Source: Phoronis australis
Taxonomy: Eukaryota; Animalia; Phoronida
Reading direction: 5' to 3'
Assembly: GCA_002633005.1 (NCBI GenBank)
Contig: NMRA01001107.1
Span: 1 to 54,226, forward strand
DNA length: 54,226 nucleotides
In this document: positions 10,072 through 54,226 of the stretch, piece by piece
Position numbering within the stretch: the stretch's first letter is position 1
Layout of the letters: every line of letters begins with the position of its first letter
Translations under genes and position numbers: made by a program
The notes under the pieces: generated by a model
What the model saw: the letters and a program-made list of their open reading frames with translations, nothing else
Told to the model about the DNA's origin: nothing
Databases searched by the model: none

Positions 10072-11435
10072 CAGTCCACGGATGCACCGACCACAGTACA
10101 GCCAACAAGCGGCAAGGTGGGGGGTCAACCATTCAGATCCATGTTTAGTCTGATAAATCACATTAGGGATGAGAGAAAATGGGTGAAGTATGACACCACA
10201 AAGTTTGGTGGTTTAGGAGATAGAAGGGAAGTGTTCTGGGGGGCAAAATGAGGCAATTTCTTGGTGTGGAATGAGTCATTTTTGACCAAATTTTCTACTC
10301 CAGTTTCTGCTTCAAACAGAATCGTTTCTGAACAATTTTGATATCACATGATAGNNNNNNNNNNNNNNNNNNNNNNNNNNNNNNNNNNNNNNNNNNNNNN
10401 NNNNNNNNNNNNNNNNNNNNNNNNNNNNNNNNNNNNNNNNNNNNNNNNNNNNNNNNNNNNNNNNNNNNNNNNNNNNNNNNNNNNNNNNNNNNNNNNNNNN
10501 NNNNNNNNNNNNNNNNNNNNNNNNNNNNNNNNNNNNNNNNNNNNNNNNNNNNNNNNNNNNNNNNNNNNNNNNNNNNNNNNNNNNNNNNNNNNNNNNNNNN
10601 NNNNNNNNNNNNNNNNNNNNNNNNNNNNNNNNNNNNNNNNNNNNNNNNNNNNNNNNNNNNNNNNNNNNNNNNNNNNNNNNNNNNNNNNNNNNNNNNNNNN
10701 NNNNNNNNNNNNNNNNNNNNNNNNNNNNNNNNNNNNNNNNNNNNNNNNNNNNNNNNNNNNNNNNNNNNNNNNNNNNNNNNNNNNNNNNNNNNNNNNNNNN
10801 NNNNNNNNNNNNNNNNNNNNNNNNNNNNNNNNNNNNNNNNNNNNNNNNNNNNNNNNNNNNNNNNNNNNNNNNNNNNNNNNNNNNNNNNNNNNNNNNNNNN
10901 NNNNNNNNNNNNNNNNNNNNNNNNNNNNNNNNNNNNNNNNNNNNNNNNNNNNNNNNNNNNNNNNNNNNNNNNNNNNNNNNNNNNNNNNNNNNNNNNNNNN
11001 NNNNNNNNNNNNNNNNNNNNNNNNNNNNNNNNNNNNNNNNNNNNNNNNNNNNNNNNNNNNNNNNNNNNNNNNNNNNNNNNNNNNNNNNNNNNNNNNNNNN
11101 NNNNNNNNNNNNNNNNNNNNNNNNNNNNNNNNNNNNNNNNNNNNNNNNNNNNNNNNNNTCTACAGGCACCACTAAACAATGCCAAGTGAATAATAAATCA
11201 ATAGCTTTCATTCAAGGAAAAATATGAACAGTTAAAACTGGACAGTTTTTATACCGTGAAAACATGGCTGCGAAGCCGTAAAATGTGTTTGAGCCTATAT
11301 CTTTAGAAAAACGCAATATTTTGAGGAAATATTTTACAGCTATTTATAGATCCCATAGGACTACCTATGTGCCAAATTTGGTGAAAATCGGCTGACCCCC
11401 ACCTTGCCGCTCATGGCTGGTGCTCTCGTGGACTA
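10072..11435. mobile_element. Academ-like non-autonomous element spanning the assembly gap, nested in the CAC element
   Basis: TIR pair CAGTCCACG...AGCGGCAAGGTGGGGGTCA vs reverse complement TAGTCCACG...AGCGGCAAGGTGGGGGTCA. YAG termini fit Academ. No matching TSD seen. Confidence 0.6.
10355..11158. other. Assembly gap (804 N)
   Basis: Run of n; the four poly-X ORFs in the track are artefacts. Confidence 1.
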
Positions 11436-12504: not shown

Positions 12505-13830
12505 GAATTGACGTTAAAGACAACATGTTGACTACGTTTAAATCATATCTCTTAGAGAACTGCCAGGTTGTATCCCTTGGTGGACATCTGTCTGAGTCCC
12601 GAGGTATCACACACAGTGTTCCCCAGGGATCCATCCTGGGACCTCTGCTGTTGTTACTTTTTATAAATGATCTCTCTTTAGTCTGCGAAAACACGGTTGA
12701 CATGTATGCAGATGACACTACTTTGTCTGTTGTGGCAAACTCGCTGATCGCTGTAAAGGACAGACTCCAGTATGATCTGGATAAGGTTGCTACCTGGTGT
12801 ACTGATAATAAAATGGTAATTAATGCTGAAAAAACAAAGTGTACGAGTATTGCCACAGAGCAACGGCATAGTAGAAGTAATCTTGAGCTTAACCTTGCTA
12901 TTTCCAATGTACACCTCAAATATGTTGACAGTGAAAAGTTATTAGGTGTTACTGTAGACAAGACCCTCAGCTGGTCTAGCCATACAAATGGGACTGTGTC
13001 CAAAATTAGGCAGCGCCTTGGTCTTCTCCGGCGTATATCACCATTTCTTCCCACAGAACGGCGTCTGCAATATTTCAGCGCTTGTGTATTCCCTCTGTTC
13101 GTTTATTGTAGTAGTAGTCGGTCAGGATGCAATGCGAAATTAGTTTCCTCTTTATTGAAGGCTCAAAAGCAGGCGTCCAGACTAGGTGTGCCTTTTGACA
13201 TTCCGTCAACTCATATCTTTAATAGACTGAGGTGTCTCCCTATTGACAAAAATTTTATATATAGGCGTCTGTGTATGATGCATAGGTGCTTTCACGGTAA
13301 TGTACCGACTTATCTATCTCATAATCTCATACTTGTTCGAAATAGCCACCAGATCAGGACAAGATTTTCTGCCTCAAACAATTTGGTTTTGCGCAGACAC
13401 AGAACATCGCTTTATTCTAAGTCCGTCTTTATTCAAACAGTGGAATAATTTGCCTAATAGTCTTAAGGATGCTGATTGTTATGATAATTTCAGACACCAC
13501 CTCATCAGTTACCTGTGGTCGTCATAGATGTCCCTCCTTCTTGTCTTTCCAATATATTTACCAAATTTTTTATTTATTTATTTATTTATTTACCTTTAAT
13601 TCAATTTGTTTATCCAATTTGTAAATACTATTTTATTTAATGTATCTTATTGTATCTTAATTTAATCTGTTTATCTAACTTAATTTAATTAATTTAAATT
13701 TCTTACTGCAGAGGACCATGCTGGATATTAGCCTTTGGCTAAAGCATGTCTTACATTTATTGTATTTTTATCCTCTTTAAATAAAGTTTATTATTATTAT
13801 TGTTGTTATTATTGTTATTGTTGTTGTTAC
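12505..13830 (+). mobile_element. 5'-truncated CR1/L2-group LINE (RT C-terminal half, 3' UTR, simple-repeat tail)
   Basis: ORF 12525-13448 has VPQGSILGPLL and YADDTT RT motifs and EKLLGVTVDKTLSW. It continues by frameshift into QWNNLP. AATAAA at ~13780 followed by a (TAT/TGT)n tail. Confidence 0.92.
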
Positions 13831-21519: not shown

Positions 21520-23360
21520 GTTTTCAATTTCTAATTGAAGAGTTGAAATCTGATATTCTCAATGTAAAATATCTGCTGCTGCATCAGCTTGCCACCTACG
21601 TATTCCTCTGTAAAATGCACATCTTTTTATTTGTATTTTCTACTACACACAACCAGCTCTGGAGATTAACATCTTTCAGCCTTTGTTTGAATTCTGACAA
21701 AAATACTGTTAATTACCTACTCCCTGGTTCAACCGCACATGACCTAAACAAGCTGTATACAACGCAGTGCAATACAGGTACACAAGTTATTATGACCGTG
21801 AGGATTTCCTCTAATATATCATCAAAAAACATTGTCTTGGAATTCTATCACTTTGCATTTTCATCATTGGTATCCCATGCCTGTGCTACATAGAATAAAG
21901 CAGATGCTCTCAATGTGTCAAACAGTCTAAATATTTATAGTAACTGTAAGTTTTCAACTAGGCATCATTGTAACACCATGTTTCTGTTCTCTTCAATTTT
22001 TCACCTTTCTTAAAAACAACAGTATTTGACTTCTGTTTACAGATTCCACTTCAAACATTTTCAATCTCAGGTTCAACTTGAATACCACTCCTCTTTCATT
22101 TTTCATGAACAATGATAAGCTCATTAGTGTCCTTTAACTTACTATTTTGTTCTATATGTATTTATCGAAACAAATGCCTTACTGAAGTCGATATAAGGAT
22201 TATAAAATGTTTTTGAGTTTTGTCTTGATGAATATTTTTTTATTCTATTTGTTAAGAATAAAAATGTTCTTTATCATTGAATGCCAGTAATTTATTTTCA
22301 TACACCTAGGATGTTAAGTAAAAACAGAACATTGAGCAGTGTAATACCTCTGTAGTTCCTACGTATAGCATCGGATGCATTACCAGGGAAATAGTATGCT
22401 GTAAGCAGTTAAAAAGTTTTCTGAGTAGACGTTTACTCTTGCCTATCAAAAATTTATAGAATGCTCGTAAAATTCCGCCTACACCTGGACTCTTACCGCT
22501 TTGCATACTTTAAACCGATTCAAGGATATCTTCTTCGGCAATATCCCTGCTAAGGTTATGTAGGACCCTATAAATGGCCAAATTTGGCTGACTTCAGAAC
22601 ATTATATCGATAAGGTCCCACATAATCTTAAATATCCTCAAATTCCTAATTTTCTTGTGTAGTTTGTGACCTCATATTCAAATGCCTACACCACCAGATG
22701 TTTTCGAAACTTGCGTTTTGCGTCTATTACAAAACTAGTGTATAATTTGGAAAAAACCCTTCAAATTCTCTTTCATATTTTTGAAGCGTTTTAACAAAAG
22801 CTATTATATGGTTTTTCTATTTCTGTGCGTACTTCATCTTCTGTTGATTTTAATCTGTGTTGTAGCACTTCAAAGGTTCGCTTTGGGCCTCGGCCTAAAT
22901 TCTATTTACTGTAGTTGGCCATTTCTCTAATGACGTCACTTTTCTCGTCATGCCTATAGGTTTCATTGATGACAACGTCGCCAAAAACATTTTGGTCTAC
23001 TTCTCTTTCTTGATCTTACTCAACATGATCTCACGCACTTTCTAAGAAATTCCTCAGTTATATGTTGACCAGGATCACTTAGAGACCTTATCCTGAAGGA
23101 TTAATCTAGTTATATACAAAATTAAGTAATATGTAACATAGTATCATGTTTTACTCTTTTCTGTTATCAATGTACAAGCCTTTTTGATTGCAATTTTTTA
23201 CCTTAGTCGCTGGAAATCAGAAACTCATGTACTCAAACATTCCGGTCTGTTTCCACGACCTGAGCTCTTCGTACGTCAGTACATGAATGATTCCTGAATG
23301 CCGGGCACGTTGTCATTGAAAACGTAGTGATACCACCTGAGCGTAAAATCGCTGCCATTT
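21520..23360 (-). pseudogene. Decayed non-LTR retrotransposon fragments (Tx1/L1-like and possibly RTE-like pieces)
   Basis: MQSGKSPGVGGILRAFYK at 22450-22506 matches the KSPGxDGxxxEFYK RT N-terminal motif. ASALFYVAQAW near 21880-21910 resembles RT C-terminal regions. Boundaries approximate. Confidence 0.5.
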
Positions 23361-42947: not shown

Positions 42948-43321
42948 ACTGCACAGTGTAATCTACTGCACAGTGTAATCTACTGCACAGTGTAATCTAC
43001 TGCACAGTGTAATCTACTGCACAGTGTAATCTACTGCACAGTGTAATCTACTGCACAGTGTAATCTACTGCACAGTGTAATCTACTGCACAGTGTAATCT
43101 ACTGCACAGTGTAATCTACTGCACAGTGTAATCTACTGCACAGTGTAATCTACTGCACAGTGTAATCTACTGCACAGTGTAATCTACTGCACAGTGTAAT
43201 CTACTGCACAGTGTAATCTACTGCACAGTGTAATCTACTGCACAGTGTAATCTACTGCACAGTGTAATCTACTGCACAGTGTAATCTACTGCACAGTGTA
43301 ATCTACTGCACAGTGTAATCT
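42948..43321. repeat. Perfect 17-bp tandem array (ACTGCACAGTGTAATCT) x22
   Basis: 374 bp = 22 x 17, no variant copy seen. Begins 22 nt after the stop codon of the KH gene on the minus strand. Confidence 0.98.
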
Positions 43322-43343: not shown

Positions 43344-44357
43344 TTATGGATGAGAAGCTAGATGCACAGCCTTCCTCATCAGCCATTGCGCAAAATCAAT
43401 TTGTTGTTTAGTTCCTGTTATTGTGATGGTGCGCTCCTCTTTATCTGGCTCAGAGTTGTCTATCACAATAGACGCCTTTGACTGAATACGTATGTCTCGA
43501 ATGCGATCACCACCTCTACCAATGATGAAGCCAACAAACTGGTTGGATATGGTAACCTCACATTTTTGAATATTACCAAAACAGTCAGCATAATCATCCA
43601 ATCCAAACCCAAATCCCATTCCAAAGTCTTCATTAAGCAAGCTTGGTCTGTTCATTTGGCCAAAGGCTCCAAGTATACCCGGTTTGTCCAAGCTAGTATC
43701 ATTGAGAAGGCTTCCCGATTGACGAACAACTGTTGGCTCATTACCATTGCTGGATATTCGCTGACGTTTGGGCGTTGGTGGAATATAGCTCCGGCTCAGC
43801 CCAACACCATGCTGATTTTCATTGTAGATATGCAGAATTTTATCTACACAACTCATAACCATTTCAAGTGATCCATGTATGTTTACAACTCGATCTGAAG
43901 AACCAGGTAAACATTCGGAATGCACTTTGATACTAGCACCTGTAGCCTGTCGCAGACTTTCCACCCTGGAGCCACCTTTACCAATGATTGCTCCAATCAG
44001 GTTTGAAAACACCATCAAGTTCAGATCATGATCTGTATTACCCGTAGGTTCGGCACAACGGGTTAAAACTTCACGTAAGCAACTGCATACTGAGCCAATT
44101 TGACCTTCAATGGATAAAACACGCTCATCAGCTGGTGATGATGGAATCTGAATGTTGACAGTGTACTGCTTCCGAAGACGGCTGATTTCTGCACCTTCTT
44201 TGCCAATGATAGCACCTGCATCCCGAGACCGTATTAGAGCTCGAAGCTGAACGTTAGAATCATCACCTTTGAGAAGTCTTTTTGGACTAGCAGCATCTTT
44301 TACGGACTGGTCACCTGCGTCATTTCGTCCATTGTTAAAATTTGAATCGGATTCCAT
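43344..44357 (-). CDS. HNRNPK-like: Intronless hnRNP K-like protein, three KH domains, 337 aa (probable retrocopy or transposon-captured copy)
   Basis: KH1 LRALIRSRDAGAIIGKEG...ERVLSI, KH2 GAIIGKGG...IKVHSECLPGSSDRVV and KH3 VTISNQFVGFIIGRGGDRIRDIRIQSKASIVID...RTITITGTKQQIDFAQWLM parallel hnRNP K KH1-3. Uninterrupted ORF ending in tandem TAA TAA. Confidence 0.9.
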   Translation of the reverse strand: MESDSNFNNGRNDAGDQSVKDAASPKRLLKGDDSNVQLRALIRSRDAGAIIGKEGAEISRLRKQYTVNIQIPSSPADERVLSIEGQIGSVCSCLREVLTRCAEPTGNTDHDLNLMVFSNLIGAIIGKGGSRVESLRQATGASIKVHSECLPGSSDRVVNIHGSLEMVMSCVDKILHIYNENQHGVGLSRSYIPPTPKRQRISSNGNEPTVVRQSGSLLNDTSLDKPGILGAFGQMNRPSLLNEDFGMGFGFGLDDYADCFGNIQKCEVTISNQFVGFIIGRGGDRIRDIRIQSKASIVIDNSEPDKEERTITITGTKQQIDFAQWLMRKAVHLASHP

Positions 44358-44399
44358 TATCGGTCGTGATCTACGGTTTAAAAGGTGGTAACTTTCGAA

Positions 44400-44635
44400 T
44401 GAAATGCTATAGTTTGGAGAGCAGCGGGGGTTGGTTCTTGAAAGTCACGTAAAAGTACAAATAGAGGTACGTGAGAAAAATAACGACACCCGACGACTAC
44501 ACCGATCACCGTGCGCCGCGAAAAGGCCACGCTTGGTTTCCCCACTACACCACCGGAAGTATTGGAGTCTGTGCGCGCGCAGGGAGGTAGGTGACCTCTA
44601 ATCATGTCAGAGTAGGTGACCTCTACCCATGTGAC
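44400..44635 (-). promoter_or_regulatory. CpG-rich putative promoter of the KH gene
   Basis: Local CpG enrichment, ETS-type CCGGAAGT (44553-44560), TGCGCGCGCA palindrome (44572-44581) and a direct repeat GTAGGTGACCTCTA (44587-44600, 44612-44625). Confidence 0.5.
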
Positions 44636-46950
44636 TTTTGTTTACTTCTGCTAGATCAGCTGTTCGTTTCATGTTCACATTAGATAGTTTTAGAGTTTTA
44701 CAACAACTCGGGGTGAATTATTGGATATATTTTTGTGAAAATTGTAACACGAGACAAGAGTTTATTTTCTGCACTAATATTTGGCTACCTTTTCAAAGTA
44801 AGATACACACATAATTTAAAAATTGAGGGTTGTGCAAGGCCAACAACCGGTTACTGACGAACGCGGGTGAGAGCATCTGAAGCACAGTACATAATGAGCT
44901 TTACACGGTAGTGTCGCTGCTATTACCAATGATGTCAGAGCCAGAACTGTCATTTTGGTCATTTTTCAAATGAGCATTTCAGTGGCGGATTTACAGCCCC
45001 CCATTAAAATTCTCCCATATTCCATTAGGGAACTCCTATGTCCCAGAGATTAAAAAGCGAGACATAATTCTGGAAATCAGGCACATTCCTGTGTCCCTCG
45101 ATTAACTAAGAAAGGCGAAGAATGTCAGGTCATGCATCATGGAATGTTTGTCCAGTTTATCAATTTTTTTCACGTCCGAGTTGCATCCCACAGCACAGTA
45201 GTAATACTTTGTTGCCATTGAAAGGACAATGAAATAGAGTACGGATGCAACTGAGAAAACCGTTTAAAGAATCGTACAACAATGAATAACATGTGAAAGT
45301 TCTCGCTGAAACTCCTGTGGCAGGAAAACAAGGCAGGATGTTTACAACATTGTTGGTAGATACAGCAAGTTTCCACTGTCGCTGTGCAATCTGGGATGGC
45401 CTTATGTATTTCTGTCGGTCAGTCGACCTGAATTACCATTTCTTTGTCTTACCATACGCTCAACAGCATGCCCTGTCCATGTTCTTTGAAGATATAATTT
45501 AAACACTCTTGACATTGCATTCAGTTTGAAACATTTGTTGAGAAGTGTATATAACACATGTATACATACATATATGTGAGTACAAATACCTAGTGTCACC
45601 AGTAATGGAAGGCTCAGAATGGCACACACATTCACTCATCAACCCTAACATGTACCCACCTACACAAGTACATACATGTATGCGTGGGAGAGTTTGTGAA
45701 CTGCAGAATGTGGTTCTTGTGAGAAGGAGCTTACCAGAACTTTTGACAGAAAATCACTTAAGACATTATTAACATACCAACATTTTTTTATAGTGCCTGC
45801 AGGGGCTGCCCCTATATTATATATTAGCCTGTGAAAGCTTAACTCATTTATTGGATGAGTCACAAAAACGCCCCCTCCTCCTTTCTCCAGGCTTGGGACT
45901 GGCAAGATGCAACACATGATTTTATACACAGTATGGTGCAACTTGGCGGAGTTAGGCGTGGTGGGGTCTAACCTGGAAAAGGAAAACACATCATTGAAAT
46001 GGTTCCGACTAGACATGCTAAACATAACTGGTACAATTATGAAAGTAACTTTTGAAACCAATTTTATTCTTCAATGCGTCTTATATTCACTATATTATTC
46101 GTTATATAATATACACTATAATATACAATAAAGTGGACAGGAATCCACCTGTTTCCATTCAGGAATATCCGAACTCAGGTATTCCAACAATAAGACAATT
46201 ATCTTCTCAGTCAACACCATGTACATAGCAAGACTATCAAAGAGCTGCTATCACTGTACTTGTATGTGAATTTCAAAATGCTGATTGTGAGTGAATGACA
46301 CTCAGGATTTACAACTATCAACAAAATTCTAACCCACTATGTGCACTAGGTACCCTTTCCAAGAACAAAATCAGAATACTTACCCATTGTAGTAGACAAC
46401 TGAAACATAACTAAAATTACTCTAATACCAATACAATAGATAATACACAATAATTCTCAGAAAAAATAACACAACAACATTTCCTAAATGATGAGTTGCC
46501 GAAAATGATTTGAATACAATTAAGCTCAAAAATCAGTCTCACAATATTCCTTACAATAATAAGACTCCATTTATATCTAAAGTGCTTTAAACCACCATTT
46601 ACCTTGTTTTCACAAGTGACTACATTGTCAGTATTAATTAATGCTTTATATCAAAGCAATCGTGGATAAGCATCCCAAAAACGAAAACCAGAAATTAATT
46701 AAAAGAAAACAGACATCAATTGAAAGTTTCTAAGCTGCACAAAAATGAGTGTGAATTATATGAACATGTACTCAATGTTTTTTGAAATCAGTGACTCCAG
46801 AATAATACTTCCGAGCTTACAGGGGTTGAGCAAATATTAAAGTGGGAATTCAAAATGGTGCATGAACTCATTTACTGTGTCTTGATTTGCTGGCTCATTT
46901 GATAATTACTAACATTTGGTAATGTTTTTAGTGTTAACTTATAGAATTAC

Positions 46951-49900
46951 TTAATCTGAATGCATAGGATCGCAAGTAAAGCAAAACCATTCCTGGCTGT
47001 TTGGAGGTGCAACTATTACATTACAGCATTTAAAATGGTACCAGTGGAAACACTTGTCACACTGTATAGATGGCTCAGCGCTGTCATCAGTATCTGGATC
47101 AGCACACTCCAACTGACAAATAGGACAGAAAAAATGTTGGATTTTTGTTATTGGCTTTCGCCTTCCCTTGGACTTCAAATTTGTCTTCAGTTTATGCTGC
47201 GCTATATTTGCTAACCCAGAATGCTTAGAGTCAGCAAGCTTCTGAAGTTGCTTATGAGGAAGTTTTTTAATTTTTGTTATGCATGCGTCCTTCACTGCAA
47301 AGGTATTCTTAGCAATGGAATGTTCTTTAAGGTGTGTACGGAATTCCTTTAAATTGTTAAAAACTGCTTTTCTTCCATTTTCATGACAATACACGCAAAA
47401 CCTTTTCCTATGTTTCAATTGTATGTGCTTGTCAAGTGCTTTGTCATTGGTAAACTTGAAAGGCTTCTTAACACCTTCTAAAATGCATGTTGTGCACCCC
47501 TGTAACTCAGGAAGAACTGTAGTCGGAACTTTAGTTCTAGTACTAGTGATAGAATTACTTTGATCTTCACTTTTTCCAACTTCCACACGATCAACCTCTA
47601 CTTCAACTTGTACTTCAACTGGGCTTATCTCTGGCACAACAAAAGCATGGTTGTCATTAGCACAACTTGAACTCTTATGTTTTGATTGTTTGGAAGCCAG
47701 AACATGTTGTCCCAAACTTTTTATCCCCGATTGTACGACTTCATGAAAATTTTTTCTTTTGGTGGATCTCTTCATTTTTCGTCCACAAAAAGTTCCCTTT
47801 GACCTTTCAACAATTGGCACTAGTGGGCAATAGGGGTCATAACTTTCTTCAGTCATTTCAGTCAAAGGATTTATGTTAGTAATAGGTCCGAACTTCCTCC
47901 TAAAACCATGTTTGTGTGGCAAAACATTACCTGGTCTTCCAATGTGTGCATTATTACATATGTATGTATCATGCAAAACTTTGAGAATTGTTCCACTTTT
48001 AATCCTGCCATGTTCTTCCTCTGAAGGTTCATGAGAAAATGAGTTCAAGTGTTCAATCTTACCAAAAGTAGAACCAGGTGTAGCAATTTCTTCAATGTGA
48101 TTGGATAAGTAATCAGGAATATTTGGAACTGTGTTTAAGTATAGCTGCAGTAATTTGTTTTTGTCATTTTCTACATGTTTTTGCCGAAGAACTGCAAGCA
48201 AGTGCTTACAGAAATATGGCTGGCCCAATGAAATGAATGTTATACATGTACACGTGCATAAGTCAATGTTACATATGTGTTCTGAACCCACTAAATTCTG
48301 ACAACCTTCTGGGAGACATGCTTTGGTAACGTCATGATTCATTCGCAAAAACGCTCCAATTAGATCCTTGTTTGTTCGTTTGACTGCTGCTTCTGCTGTG
48401 TACCCATGTTCTTGTACATTACTTTGTGAAACAATCGCATCAATGTCAGAAAATATCTGAGAATTTTGCTCAGAAGACAGTTCCACATCATCAAGTATAG
48501 TAGCCAATTCCTCATCTGACATGTCACAAGTGTAAATTTTATCTGGGAGTTGTGACGATGTTGACCCAGAAGTGGGAGCTACTAAATACCAACCATGAGA
48601 TAAATTCGTTACATTTGAAATAGTGAGGCTTTGGTCGATAGATTTTTTGATAAATGTTTGCCTTGAAACCTGTAACTTTTCTTGATGAGAGTGCATTGTG
48701 TGGAACGATTCACGAATAAGAACACAGTTCATCAGTTTGTCTACTAAGTGGCACATTTTCCGGTTAACTCGGTTTTGGAAGTCATTTGCCTGGATTTCTT
48801 TGAACTTGTTTTCAGTAATATTATCTGTAAGCATTAAAGGGTTTCTTTTCTGTTCATCTGGAATATTATATAGCACAGCTGATGTGTAAGTACTTGTCCA
48901 TCTGCATTGAAACCACTGATTATCCAAATATTTAAGAAATTTCTGTTTCACATTTACTGGAATTAATGCTTCGGGAATAAAACTAGAAATAAATTCTTTA
49001 AACCTGCCAGACAACTGATCATGAACATTCCTACACCAAGATCTCATTATTGTTTTGAATCCAATTTCAAGTGGCCACATGAACATTACTAAAATGTTGT
49101 CTTCCTTTATGTATGTACGGTATGCTGTTAATGCGTGGAAGTTGCATAATGTTGAATGTGAACCGAATCCATGGACTGCATTACAGATTGCCATTGCCTT
49201 GTCATGCTCTATCCATGGTTTGAAAATGTGATCAAGAGCACATTGTCGAGTCCAAAAAAACCCATTACCATCGTCAAAAGTGTGTAATTGTTTAGGATGA
49301 GAGCATGTAGTACTTGAACATGGAACATTTGCAGCTATTATTTCTAAAGTGAGTAATATGGATTCTTCGTTTTCTACATTGCATATAGATATTGCCCCAA
49401 TACGCCCTTTTCTGCTTGAATCGCAATATGTTAATATAGCCGTTTTGTAGCGAGCAGCATTCAAATCATGCTTGACATCAAAGCCACAGACAACCGATCC
49501 ATATTTTCGAAGGCAAGTTAAACTATCATCGGTTGCCAAAACAATGTGGTAATTTCTCTCTAGCTGTTCATTACCCCTTTGAAAAAATAGAACAGATTCG
49601 TAGTTGCTTTCCAAAACCTTTTCTGTATCCCGCCAATCTGACCTAATTTCAATAACATCTTTGTTGGATATGAGTTGATTAATCTGATGACTGTCAGCAA
49701 CTTTCACTCTCTTAGAAATCTGACCCAAAGAAAAGTACTCCATTTCCTTGCCCCCAAAGTCTACTGGATTTGCTCTCATATATGTTGACTGTATTGTATG
49801 TGCTGATAATTTACTTTCTGCCCGCATTCTGTCCCACGTAGTTCTGGCTGTAAGTTTTGGTTTGGTGTAGACAGAAGTAGGATCACTACTGTGGAAATAG

Positions 49901-52900
49901 CTGTTAGCAGAACTTGCATAAATATCATACATTTCTAAATTGGATGTGTTCAGTACTAGTTTCATCTTCCAATTGCATTTGAGATGTTCATGATGTACAA
50001 CATTAGGGGTGGTATGGCAAGTATTGGTTACTCTGTCCACCTTATGTATTCTTTTGTACTCATAACATGATCTACATCTCAGTTTGTCTCCATTGTACCA
50101 CTGGCTAGAATATTTCCTATTGCAGTTGCCACACACTTTGTTACTGCTTAAATCAGTCTGACAGCTGGGACATTTATCATCCGTTATGTTCTGTCTGATG
50201 TCACAAAGAAGTTCACCACACCTGCTTCTACATTCGTTTGTGTTTGATGTGCATGTTAAGTTCCAATGGATAATGTTCTTGTTTACAGAGTTCCCTGTAT
50301 AAATAAATTTTTGGTCCAGTCTATTTGTTTTCCCCCAGTTAGGATGCTTGGTTACTGACACACATGGCGTCCCTTTGAGGTACTCTGAAGATGTGTTGTG
50401 TGGCTCTAAAATATCTAAGTCCTGATTCACTGAAAATGGAAGTTCTTCAACATAATTTAGTGTATCTGAGCCAACACGAACCTGACCTATTTTTTGAAAT
50501 TCTGCTGAAGCCGAAGCCAACCAATATTGGCAATGTCTGCTGTTAACATAGTCTTGAATCTTTTTTACACTGTTGCTATCATCCAATCCTTGGTTTGTAC
50601 AAGTAAAATACCGACTGCAAATTTTACCATTGTTTAGTGACAGTTTTAGATGTATCTGTGGTAAGTGTGACTGTGGATCATAAGAGAGTGATGGAGGTGA
50701 AGTAATAAATGTTGATACCAAACTGGCATCAATAACATCATCTCTTATTTCCATCTGTTGCTGACTTCCATTAATCCAGTCAATGCAGTCGTTACTGTTA
50801 ATGAAATTTTGTATTGTCCTGTATGTATCACCATTAGAGCCAGCAAATCTCTTGGAAAGGTGTGCTCCATTGTTTAAAACTAAAAAGAGTCGCATAGAAT
50901 TACCATCTCTGTAAATCTTTGTCTTATTGGAAATGAAAGAAGAAATATTAGAAAAGTCTACATTTTCAATTCTATTTTCCAATTTTGCACTGTCTTGGTC
51001 TTGCTTGTTATGAATCCATTGAACACACTCATTACTGTTGATAAAGTTCTGAATATCCTGAAACACATCAGCTTTTGACCTTTTAAACTTCTTTTGAATT
51101 TTGGAACCATTCCTTAAAAATAAACAGAGCCGAAAAAAAACACCATCTGCATAAATTTTTGGCCTTCCATTAACAAATGGTAATACACTAGAAAAATCTA
51201 TGGTGTCTTTAGTAAGAGCAGCGTTGCTGTTGGTATTATTGTGATTATTATCTGAATTGGTTGTGAGATGGCTGTTGGATGAGCATGGTTTATCAATGTT
51301 GACATTGTCAGACTTAACTTGAGGAAAAACAGACTCGTCGTTTCCTACACTATGGTTACTTGGTGGCACTTGATGCTTTTTTGTTAACTTAAGTTTGTTT
51401 TTTGCAACGCAACTCTTTTTCTGTTCAGGAGTCTTGTTTGTCAAATTAGTATTGGCAAGATGTTCATTTTGACTATTTGGCTTTGAATGTCCAGCCTCCT
51501 TATCAAGTTCAGTGTGATGATCAGTGAAATTGTGTATCACTTTAGACATGTCAGAGCTGCCATCTTCTGATGTTTGGTCACTTACCGTCTCAAGTATAGG
51601 ACTACTATGGGACGACAGAGAACAATTTTGTCCCAAAGTTTGACTGCCATGATTGTCCTCTACTTCATCATCATTTATCCTGATTTTTCTTATGTTAACT
51701 TGTTTTGAAACCAACCAGTCTATCAAAACCAATCTCAAAAAAGATGAATGACTGCTTATGTTTCTGAGGTAGCACAGTGAGGAGACCATTTGACCATAAG
51801 CTAACTTAGTGAAGATGTCAAAATTACAGACAGCAAGTGCCATTCCAACAGTTGCAGCCACACCGCACACTGTTCCACATGTTTGGATAGGATATGTATG
51901 AGAACAAGTCTGCGAACAAATGTGTGATTTTTTCCTTCGCATGTGTGTATTATTAGGACTGTGCACATAATGAATTAATTCAACTGACCCACCTAAACTT
52001 TGGACTAAAACATTTAACTTCTCTGAGAGAACATTTGGTATTGCCCATCCATTTGTGTCTGCATAAATTAAGGTTTGATTGCTAAACGAATATACAAGTA
52101 ACGCCCAGTGATTACCAGCCTCCCCATTCTCACCACTTAGAAAGGTCGATTTGTTATTGTTGATTCCTACATGTACAACAAAAACAAGCTTACTTTGGGA
52201 AAGGTCGCTACCACACTGGTGATGTACTTTGGTCTTCAATACATCCAAATCGTCATAGAAATTAAAAAGACTACAGAATGTGTTAGCCTGATCCAAATTC
52301 AAAAGAGCTGCAAATTTTGAAATGACCATGTTATTTAACCAATATTTACAAAGCAGGTCCACAGCATCTGCAACAATTAAGTCAGGGTGGTTCATGACAT
52401 GGTCTGTGTTTTTGCCCTGCAATGATTGGCGTTGAAATGTCTCAATGTTCTTTCTGTTTATTGGAGCCCTCATATTATTTGACTGCTCGATAATAGTGTA
52501 TGCATTCTTAAACCACAGCTTTTCTGCATTTACCTTGCGTGAAATGACCTTACAGGTGTGTAAGTTATCAAAGTATTGAAGATCTTGTTTATGGAAGGTA
52601 CCAAATCTTAGGTTAACTGCATTCATTGTAGGATATTTGTTCAAAATGTCAAAACTTCTCTTAATGTCAGTTTGTGGTGGCATAAATTTGCATGTTCGGG
52701 CTTCTGTAAACTGATCTGTATTGCATGCTGTGATTTGGCGTGTGGGTAACACTGCTGGATAAGCTATTTGAGATAAACCTTCCCTACTATTAATACTACT
52801 TAGGAAAGGGGTAAGTGAACTGCCATCATCATTGTCATCATCACTAATACAAATGCATTCACCTTCATACGATTTGTTAGTATACTTAGATGCATTACTA

Positions 52901-53054
52901 CCACTGCAATTATCAAAGTTACCACCATCACCGTCACCAGCGTCACCAGTGTCATCACCCCTTCCACCACCACCAGTCATGTACACTCTAGATTCTGCTA
53001 CAAAACACGGACTTGATTCTTGGCTGTGAACACCCTGAGGTATCTCAACACTCC
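46951..53054 (-). CDS. Giant Mutator/MULE-like transposase, terminal 6.1-kb exon: Ulp1-like protease, 3x ~70-aa repeat, GATA-like finger, DDE core, SWIM, C2H2 x2, PHD
   Basis: Open from acceptor tttcag| (53054) to TAA (46951). Motifs: NHWALL/YADTNG/PIQTCGTVCG (Ulp1 H-D-Q-C), GFDVKHD...EHDKA...LCNFH...TDNITE (MULE D-D-CxxH-E), CTCITF...CKHLLAV (SWIM) and CPIC...IQCDKCFHWYHFKC...WFCFTC (PHD). Confidence 0.88.
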
Positions 53055-53272
53055 CTGAAATGCAATTCAGACTAGGTTAACATGTGATGCAGTCACTGAG
53101 CAGGTGAGGATGACAGCACAAATCATGCACAAATACGCGAACCGCCACACACACACGTGTATGTAAATGAAAGATCAATCACTTGAAAAGTCAAAAAAGA
53201 AAACCGGATTGAAAGATTTGTCTTGCGTAATAGGGATAAGTTGTACATATGCATCGGTGGTATTCAACTCAC

Positions 53273-53351
53273 CAACAACTCGACTATATGTATCAACAGG
53301 CCATGACATTGCAGCTAGCCACTCGGTCTGGTCTTCGCACACATCATCTTT
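53273..53351 (-). CDS. Giant MULE-like gene, small internal exon
   Basis: ttgtag|AAAGATGAT...GTTGTTG|gtgagt; 79 nt, phase 0-1. This is exactly the phase needed to join 53628 to 53054 (KDDVCEDQTEWLAAMSWPVDTYSRVV-G). Confidence 0.72.
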
Positions 53352-53627
53352 CTACAAAAAAGTGTTATACCTTGACTGCATGTCAATTAACAACTCACGG
53401 ATATCCATTGACCAAGAAATATTTTCGTAAAAATTAAAGCTAAAGTTTTGAATTTTTGACCCACTTGATATAGTCATAATTCTAATAATCTATAGTTTAG
53501 TAGATGTGTTGCTAAATATATAGATTTTTTAATAAGGTCCTACATAACCTTAAAACCCAAGCAGTTAAATTCCAGTCAGAACATAGTGTAATGTAGCAAC
53601 AAAGCAATGTATTGAAGTAAGGTTTAC

Positions 53628-53822
53628 GTAATGAGTTAGCTTCATGTGAGCAACAATTGCTGTAAGATCATTTCCGTGGAGTTCCCTGCAGATATGGCAT
53701 GATGGTCGGTCAATATATGGCTTCTTCTTCGCTGTCACTTGTTTGGAGAAAGTCGGCTTCACACTACGTCCTTGTCCTGCTAGTTGAGCTGGTTCCATGG
53801 CTTCTTGACATGCTGCTTCACT
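53628..53822 (-). CDS. Giant MULE-like gene, exon with C2H2-type finger
   Basis: tttcag|AGTGAAGCA...CATTAC|gtaaac; 195 nt, phase 0-0. Encodes SCHICRELHGNDLTAIVAHMKLTH. Confidence 0.75.
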
Positions 53823-54010
53823 CTGAAAAATACACCATATGAAGCAAAAGGGTAAACAATGAGCATTGGTACATAATAATGAATTCTGTATCATTTTAGT
53901 GTTAACAGTGTAACAGAAGCTTAAAATATTTGCAACAAAATGTATGACTGAACATGTTTTACTCTCAGTAAAACAAGCAACCACCTAATTTCTGAATGAC
54001 TGACACTCAC

Positions 54011-54173
54011 CCCAATCCATCGTCCATCGCGCATAATGATAATAACATCGTCGGGTGATGCAAGCTGCCCATCAAAATCTCCCTTTGAGACCCTTCTCCT
54101 CACACCATTCTTTCGCACCTTTCCACCCTCTTTCACTGGTCGTATGTCCGGTCTTCTCGTCTCGTTATGCATG
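54011..54173 (-). CDS. Giant MULE-like gene, most upstream in-window exon (basic, MHNETRRP...DGRWIG)
   Basis: tttag|C ATG CAT ... ATT GGG|gtgagt; the phase 0 donor fits the next exon. The acceptor suggests further exon(s) beyond the window. Confidence 0.62.
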
Positions 54174-54226
54174 CTAAAGAACACAGATTCAGTGTTTCAT
54201 GTCCCAGGGACTGCGTTATGTTTTTT

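Follow-up and report, generated by a model that had tools for sequence, protein, structure and literature searches.

The window, a 54,226-nt stretch of Phoronis australis DNA analysed as a whole, carries a long gene on its reverse strand whose predicted product joins a protease, a transposase-like core and several zinc fingers. An earlier note described it as a MULE-like transposase belonging either to an active autonomous element or to a domesticated chromatin factor, and the question raised by the locus is which of these it is. The evidence below points to an intact member of a gene family with many copies, whose product is likely the transposase of a Mutator-type (MULE) element: an autonomous cut-and-paste transposon belonging to a distinct lineage found in marine invertebrates.

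Gene model and domain organization

The largest exon occupies an open frame whose length would be reached by chance with a probability of ~1e-62 at local composition (Table 1). The three introns (188, 276 and 218 nt) all begin with GT and end with AG, and the joined exons read through uninterrupted to one stop at the end, giving a product of 2,179 aa counted from the ATG. The introns contain stops in all three frames at 29-40% GC, compared with 46-50% GC for exons 1-3. The coordinates, phases and lack of internal stops of the four-exon model thus stood, whereas no splice junction reached the listing threshold in three raw RNA runs, of which 18-19% was read. Sense RNA over the gene was weak and came from one library, being near zero in two of the three runs; exon 1 had no RNA cover in the same 18-19% of reads. 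Neither exon 1 nor exon 3 had homology support. An AG lies directly ahead of 54173, so a further upstream exon beyond the window is possible. The C2H2 finger of exon 2, which had no Pfam match, showed positional counterparts by pattern in the entries of 5 of 11 relatives (P0003, P0004, P0172, P0006 and P0015), or 6 with a second isoform.

Table 1. Features of the predicted gene and its 3' flank, in window coordinates.
Feature	Position	Strand	Details
Exon 1, predicted	54011..54173	(-)	ATG at 54172; GT donor, open frame, 50% GC; within multicopy unit
Exon 2, predicted	53628..53822	(-)	C2H2 finger at 53699-53631
Exon 3, predicted	53273..53351	(-)	GT-AG, phase-compatible; low sense coverage in one RNA run
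Exon 4	46951..53054	(-)	Inside stop-free frame P0001 (53076-46954, 2,041 codons)
SUMO-interacting-motif-like stretch, weak	52831..52854	(-)	Hydrophobic then acidic; post hoc pattern
Ulp1/SENP-family (C48) cysteine protease domain	51682..52374	(-)	Atlas 0.94 to Peptidase_C48 clusters; H 52110 (H323), D 52059 (D340), Q 51885 (Q398), C 51867 (C404)
Three ~70-aa repeats	50506..51210	(-)	51210-51001, 50970-50761, 50742-50506; three-stranded sheet plus helices
WRKY/GCM1-like core, predicted DNA-binding module	49822..50499	(-)	C942, C1034, H1031, H1062 of P0001
Four-Cys module	50232-50161	(-)	Wrapped by WRKY/GCM1-like core
GATA-type zinc finger	49981..50139	(-)	CxxC-x15-CxxC, cysteines 50133-50065; nested in WRKY/GCM1-like module
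DDE catalytic core	48727..49581	(-)	D 49479-49477, D 49203-49201, CxxH (CNFH) 49146-49135, W 48900, E 48813-48811
Cys/His insert in DDE core, ~30 aa	49320-49228	(-)	C,C,H,C kept in 52/57
SWIM zinc finger	48181..48276	(-)	Pfam SWIM 19.9 bits, cut-off 19.6
Two C2H2-like fingers	47320..47496	(-)	By pattern; homologous pair in relatives
PHD finger	46972..47127	(-)	Pfam PHD E 1.6e-4, below cut-off; TAF3 PHD E 2e-6
3' flank within repeated unit	46584..46950	(-)	46584-46697 fused to 46911-47265 in a diverged contig of 670 nt

The domain string proposed earlier (Ulp1, three repeats, GATA, D-D-CxxH-E, SWIM, PHD) was recovered in full at 52374-46972, with the catalytic motifs at the positions first assigned to them. 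The C-terminal C2H2-like pair had no Pfam match. In the protease, the WL(N/S) box, the His-Asp-Cys triad and the oxyanion Gln follow each other in Ulp1 order with all residues intact, and H/D/Q/C was complete in 119 of 140 Ulp1 domains. The family profile matched yeast Ulp1 (1EUV, E 3e-7, spanning the W, H and D motifs) and SENP1; it also matched a Chlamydia deubiquitinase/deneddylase (E 1e-4), which leaves room for another substrate beside the predicted SUMO cleavage. Five proteins out of 22 show, ahead of Ulp1, a pattern following the definition of a SUMO-interacting motif; four of these are convincing by eye.

The three repeats, which have no family assignment, are genuine, their pair scores (187, 83 and 62) exceeding the maxima of 1,000 shuffles (52, 45 and 47). 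The GATA-like finger is likewise present, but it is not a separate bead: an AlphaFold model (pLDDT 91) placed it, together with the four-Cys module, within a WRKY/GCM1-like domain that had been missed earlier. The four conserved cysteines occupy the position of the GCM zinc ribbon, between two core cysteines. No Pfam GCM match was found, and GCM1 (1ODH) was not among the 50 fold matches listed. The nested GATA finger and the ~70-aa repeat are new candidates for DNA binding.

Probable assignment to the Mutator superfamily

Mutator/MULE transposases are marked by three acidic residues (D-D-E), CxxH following the second D and W preceding the E, commonly but not universally followed by SWIM, and by an N-terminal WRKY-GCM1-type DNA-binding domain, terminal inverted repeats and an 8-10-bp target site duplication. 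The core analysed here is spaced D-92-D-22-H and D-130-E. Across the family, D,D,C,H,E was complete in 30 of 36 complete DDE domains, the W ahead of E was conserved in 14 of 16 rows and the SWIM pattern CxC..CxH in 33 of 35. The 5' end of the element lies beyond base 54226, outside the window.

The best Atlas match was a MULE cluster (0.95, 198/256 features), with which 9 of the 10 best family-bearing matches shared family or clan. In a profile alignment, the core matched Pfam-MULE carriers over 228 columns (E 6e-4, probability 29%) with D, D and CxxH in register, and a distant member, P0090, matched both the family core (E 2e-36) and Pfam MULE (9e-4). The window itself had no Pfam MULE call, our own profile test did not score above shuffles, and the structure model of the DDE core reached pLDDT 31. 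The identification as a MULE-like transposase is supported by motif order and spacing, Atlas and the profile alignment, whereas an RNase H-like match was obtained only at E 0.02-0.04 (Pfam ZSWIM model). Taken together, motifs and weak profiles support MULE membership at the level of sequence, for a transposon lineage overlooked by standard profiles.

Copies, relatives and rival readings

One run of host DNA yielded 926 contigs on a 10.8-kb stretch, 478 of them <90% alike, and the summed depth was 77-511 over the gene versus 59-61 over a neighbouring KH gene. Host copies showed joints skipping 245, 387, 788 and 3,863 nt, and single nucleotides were deleted within the core. Among 150 matches listed of 453, seven were arranged alike, from Ulp1 through the DNA-binding module and DDE to SWIM, two of them with every part of the string. 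The same order occurred in limpet, ribbon worm, crabs and mantis shrimp, under public labels such as 'hypothetical' or 'GATA-type domain-containing'. Patella caerulea had eight full-length loci on six sequences, with pairs 99.6-99.9% identical, and Tubulanus polymorphus three loci, 99.8-99.9% identical; the near-identical limpet copies could serve for mobility tests. Dispersed multiple copies with deletion derivatives, a Mutator-like trait, were thus seen in the host contigs and the limpet and ribbon-worm loci.

The many diverged and internally deleted host copies make a transposon most likely, rather than a domesticated gene. That the window copy instead encodes a former transposase now acting as a chromatin or transcription factor of the host, the other copies being fossils of the parent element, is improbable in our judgement, even though its long frame is fully open against deletions and frameshifts in the sister copies listed, and the gene has introns and sense RNA. 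Relatives appear to have been tamed into host genes in crabs and shrimp: Scylla and Portunus have one locus each, 93.8% identical, and the portunid version is catalytically degenerate, with E for D, YxxN for CxxH and Y for the protease C, and has lost the PHD finger, while shrimp and lobster versions are DDE-less. These derivatives look like undescribed domesticated genes, but the window copy retains all that they lost, resembles the multicopy limpet and ribbon-worm elements in its retained residues, is hardly expressed in two of three runs and has no close orthologue, its best full-length relatives being ~32% identical. Of the proteins examined, eight are full-length with an intact DDE (window, P0002, P0003, P0004, P0006, P0009, P0172, P0173), and none of these had lost a protease residue; the protease cysteine is gone from the crab form and from four of the seven DDE-less forms. 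The cysteine, kept with an intact DDE and often lost with a dead one, offers a natural test for the old question of the reason for Ulp1 domains on transposases.

A different or new DDE superfamily, such as a KDZ/Zisupton-like one sharing only CxxH and SWIM with MULEs, would accommodate the weak MULE profile scores and the unusual Cys/His insert, and Zisupton likewise carries SWIM and Ulp1; it is nevertheless very improbable. KDZ/Zisupton elements are marked by a KDZ catalytic domain and CxC modules, and no KDZ-family Pfam match was present among the families listed, while the Atlas neighbours and the in-register catalytic residues point to MULEs. It is also unlikely that the real gene is limited to exon 4 (first ATG near codon 33) or to exons 2-4, with exon 1 a product of chance. 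Six canonical, in-phase splice sites, exons richer in GC than the introns and the recurrence of the N-terminal C2H2 in relatives argue against it; the missing junction reads, the uncovered exon 1 and the many relatives called as single exons beginning near the protease argue for it. Such a truncation would alter the N-terminus only, not the overall identification.

Of the two fates proposed earlier, the multicopy transposon is therefore favoured, while 'active' did not carry over: present-day mobility and every biochemical step are what we infer. Binding of the element ends would fall to the WRKY/GCM1-like module and the GATA finger nested in it, perhaps aided by the repeats; cutting the ends out and joining them to target DNA would be the work of the D-D-E core, CxxH and W, by analogy with Muta1; and the C2H2 pair and the PHD finger would guide the transposase to chromatin. 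Ulp1 would remove SUMO from proteins located at or close to the element, most likely loosening host silencing or clearing the transpososome.

Comparison with known systems

The full string, which the earlier note did not recognise from described MULE families, is a conserved family trait not found in print as far as the sources extend, although its parts are known singly (PMC2836005, PMC5693882). N-terminal Ulp1 is not unique to it, being present also in a second, more canonical MULE lineage here. The present GATA-finger lineage did not turn up in the literature searched, which did not extend to Repbase, and is apparently uncatalogued. A wider reading, possible though doubtful, is a separate deep Mutator branch with a GATA-swallowing GCM-type finger, a new repeat domain and an anti-silencing SUMO protease, still moving in limpets and ribbon worms and domesticated on several occasions in decapods as a new transcription-factor family, one member having ten repeats. 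If true, this would be, among animal transposons, the one closest to the origin of GCM factors.

The following comparisons are with excerpts of the published accounts. MuDR/Mutator transposons of hydra and lancelet are similar in fusing a Mutator-type transposase to Ulp1/C48 and PHD in invertebrate hosts (PMC2836005); here the protease is N-terminal, followed by the repeats and the GATA-containing module, a comparison made by description only. In Ginger1, Ulp1 is C-terminal, while for the MuDR elements the excerpts leave the placement of the protease unstated (PMC2836005). MuDRF, a branch of MuDR in fungi that has a GCM DNA-binding domain and a 9-bp TSD, is comparable in its divergent transposase and in its WRKY-GCM1 domain with a second zinc module between the core cysteines, an arrangement predicted for the present module; its description, from basidiomycetes and Naegleria, mentions no GATA finger, protease or repeats in the excerpt (PMC3164196). 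Insert-containing WRKY-GCM1 domains are known from MULE transposases and the derived factors Aft2/Rcs1 and FAR1, with inserts of 20-70 basic residues or a GCM1 zinc ribbon; the present insert has ~90 residues, comprising the four-Cys module and a whole GATA finger, and, unlike those described, a single His ends the last strand (PMC1702500).

Rice OsGATA22 and OsGATA23 also combine a GATA finger with MULE-SWIM, but are described as 730-740-aa plant host genes with GATA before FAR1 and without protease, repeats or PHD (PMC5693882); this GATA-FAR1-MULE-SWIM fusion most likely arose independently. Rehavkus is likewise MULE-related, animal and PHD-bearing, with a 3' minisatellite ahead of the TIR, a 9-bp TSD and no SWIM in the published table (PMC6446971); the present element has SWIM and no tandem array directly 3' of the gene, no minisatellite being found within 2.5 kb downstream. 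Muta1 of Aedes aegypti has D, D, H, W and E in the same order and at similar spacing (D-69-D-24-H, D-136-E), the surplus residues here between the first two D matching the Cys/His insert; Muta1 is described as a 504-aa protein with a FLYWCH finger and without accessory enzyme or core insert (PMC5225508). It forms hairpins on the flanking DNA and an 8-9-bp target duplication, according to the excerpted account (PMC5499845), and the transposition mechanism as known is unchanged by the element described here.

Structure and expression of the transposase gene

The window contains a genuine, intact-looking copy of a Mutator-like (MULE) transposase gene. The four exons described in the earlier note were recovered with GT-AG introns of 188, 276 and 218 nt and a single open frame of 2,179 aa, exon 4 being spanned by a stop-free frame of 2,041 codons (P0001), and the catalytic residues were confirmed at the codons it had named. 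Residues are numbered on the exon-4 frame, with 138 added for the spliced protein. Splicing of the four-exon gene is predicted from sequence. RNA cover was analyzed in three raw runs, 18-19% of each being read. Sense RNA covered 14/20 bins of the transposase gene in the best run and 2/20 and 0/20 in the other two; in that best run, sense depth was at most 1.7, versus 6-7 on the adjoining KH gene. Exon 1 had zero cover in these reads, and no splice junctions of the transposase gene were listed from them. The KH gene, which may be an hnRNP K/PCBP-like retrogene, showed RNA in all three runs, and the neighboring stretch 44580-45221 could be a terminus of another DNA transposon. Antisense RNA from a diverged element copy lacking 48541-48785 was also observed (window 48490-49929; 2, 5 and 1 reads in the three runs); such RNA could feed silencing.

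Features of the window
Feature	Position	Strand	Remarks
Transposase gene, four exons	54173-54011, 53822-53628, 53351-53273, 53054-46951	-	
Catalytic codons D, D, E	49477-49479, 49201-49203, 48811-48813	-	
KH gene, intronless, three KH domains	43350-44357	-	Pfam KH_1 E 2e-42
Perfect 17-bp tandem repeat, ~22 units	42948-43321		begins right after KH gene stop
Repeat edge, doubled 13-mer	~44580, in 44580-45221		~20 bases from start of KH-gene RNA cover
THAP-domain-start lookalike, high-copy	45218-45102	-	by eye; no Pfam match
Reverse-transcriptase fragment, non-LTR element	12507-13445	+	RVT_1 E 9e-12
Open frame, 489 codons	18845-20311	-	no Pfam match
Open frame, 211 codons	30009-30641	+	no Pfam match
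Open frame, 289 codons	30993-31859	+	no Pfam match
Assembly gap, 804 N	about 10350-11160		

Relatives and copies in the host DNA

A word-indexed sequence search for relatives gave no match. HMMER with residues 235-1434 retrieved 453 proteins, and among the best 150 listed, at least seven carried, arranged as in the window protein, Ulp1, the nested DNA-binding module (a predicted WRKY/GCM1-like domain enclosing a four-Cys module and the GATA finger), DDE and SWIM, two of them with every part. Partial matches among the 150 were mostly fragments (protease alone in 92, core alone in 20), and two further searches added a few relatives. Named hosts were Patella caerulea, Tubulanus polymorphus, Scylla, Portunus, Oratosquilla, Halocaridina, Palaemon and Homarus; identity of the window protein to the best full-length relatives was ~32%. 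Patella has eight full-length loci (six sequences) in two subfamilies that are 86% identical, with pairs inside one subfamily at 94.6 to 99.9%, and Tubulanus has three loci at 99.8-99.9% plus fragments. These near-identical loci point to recent transposition in both hosts.

Two or three tandem Ulp1-like domains were found in P0009, P0032, P0033, P0034 and P0069, one copy lacking the cysteine in several. The distant relative P0031 shares the core insert, has no Ulp1 or GATA match and carries PHD ahead of a SWIM-like motif. In P0073, a non-LTR reverse transcriptase was called in frame with a DNA-binding-module piece lacking the GATA finger, probably a nested insertion.

One sample supplied four DNA runs, whose contigs were aligned on 43450-54226. 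The deepest run gave 926 contigs, 478 of them less than 90% alike, and its summed contig depth, which does not equal copy number, was 77-511 across the transposase gene versus 59-61 on the KH gene. Contig joints jumped stretches of 245, 387, 788 and 3,863 nt within the gene, and the DDE core of host copies showed single-base deletions. A transposon typically leaves behind such a scatter of decayed and deleted copies. One 1,743-nt contig with 26 letter differences and 6 gaps relative to the window is either an allele or a young sister copy. The element runs past the window on its 5' side, and its 3' end was not located. Short high-copy motifs occur at 46578-46634 and 53511-53554, the latter, in intron 2, also matching an inverted pair at 22551-22632.

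Probable domesticated derivatives in decapods

The earlier note had left open an active element or a domesticated factor. In Scylla and Portunus, with one locus shown each (93.8% identical), the second D is replaced by E, CxxH by YxxN and the protease C by Y, and PHD is absent. Eight further proteins, from Halocaridina (two), Palaemon, Homarus, one Tubulanus and three others, run from the DNA-binding module through the C2H2 pair without DDE or SWIM, two of them with ten repeats. The protease cysteine is gone in four of the seven DDE-less proteins with a protease domain and kept in 8/8 full-length DDE-intact proteins. Degeneracy together with conservation suggests domestication of the crab form, with its degenerate DDE, and of the DDE-less shrimp and lobster forms; P0005, P0159 and P0160, and P0010, P0013, P0020, P0024 and P0025, are probable domesticated derivatives. 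The window copy, by likeness, resembles the mobile class.

Proposed working and comparison with known Mutator systems

The protein probably works like a Mutator transposase and is a putative member of that superfamily. By analogy with Muta1 of Aedes aegypti, a model for binding, excision and insertion (PMC5225508, PMC5499845, in part), the nested module would bind the element's ends, excision would proceed via hairpins on flanking DNA, and insertion would produce an 8-9-bp target duplication. PHD and the C2H2 fingers would guide chromatin contact. At the element, the predicted protease would most likely strip silencing or repair proteins of SUMO; we infer the link to silencing from just two observations, namely that DDE-intact members retain the protease cysteine and that one stretch weakly resembles a SIM. 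That Ulp1 takes part in transposition or repair was already proposed in PMC2836005.

The lineage is conserved and apparently undescribed. No account of it was found in full-text literature searches, though Repbase, Dfam and the FASTA supplements of PMC6446971 may hold members, and the available portions of PMC13359780, PMC2528002 and bioRxiv 10.1101/2021.09.26.461848 held nothing resembling it. The N-terminal protease is not unique, as the same subfamily precedes a canonical MULE in P0121 and P0128 (Patiria miniata) and four others. These six, including P0041, P0068, P0116 and P0127, form a second, canonical MULE lineage, in which the starfish protein P0128 and P0116/P0127 look degenerate. Single parts have precedents in the portions of the sources seen: hydra, lancelet and plant Mutators have Ulp1, Ginger1 as well as Mutator transposases have Ulp1-PHD (PMC2836005), and Rehavkus has PHD (PMC6446971); the table of 50 MULE groups in the latter paper enters neither GATA nor Ulp1. 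MuDRF bears a GCM domain (PMC3164196, in part), and GATA, FAR1, MULE and SWIM are joined in rice OsGATA22/23 (PMC5693882, in part).
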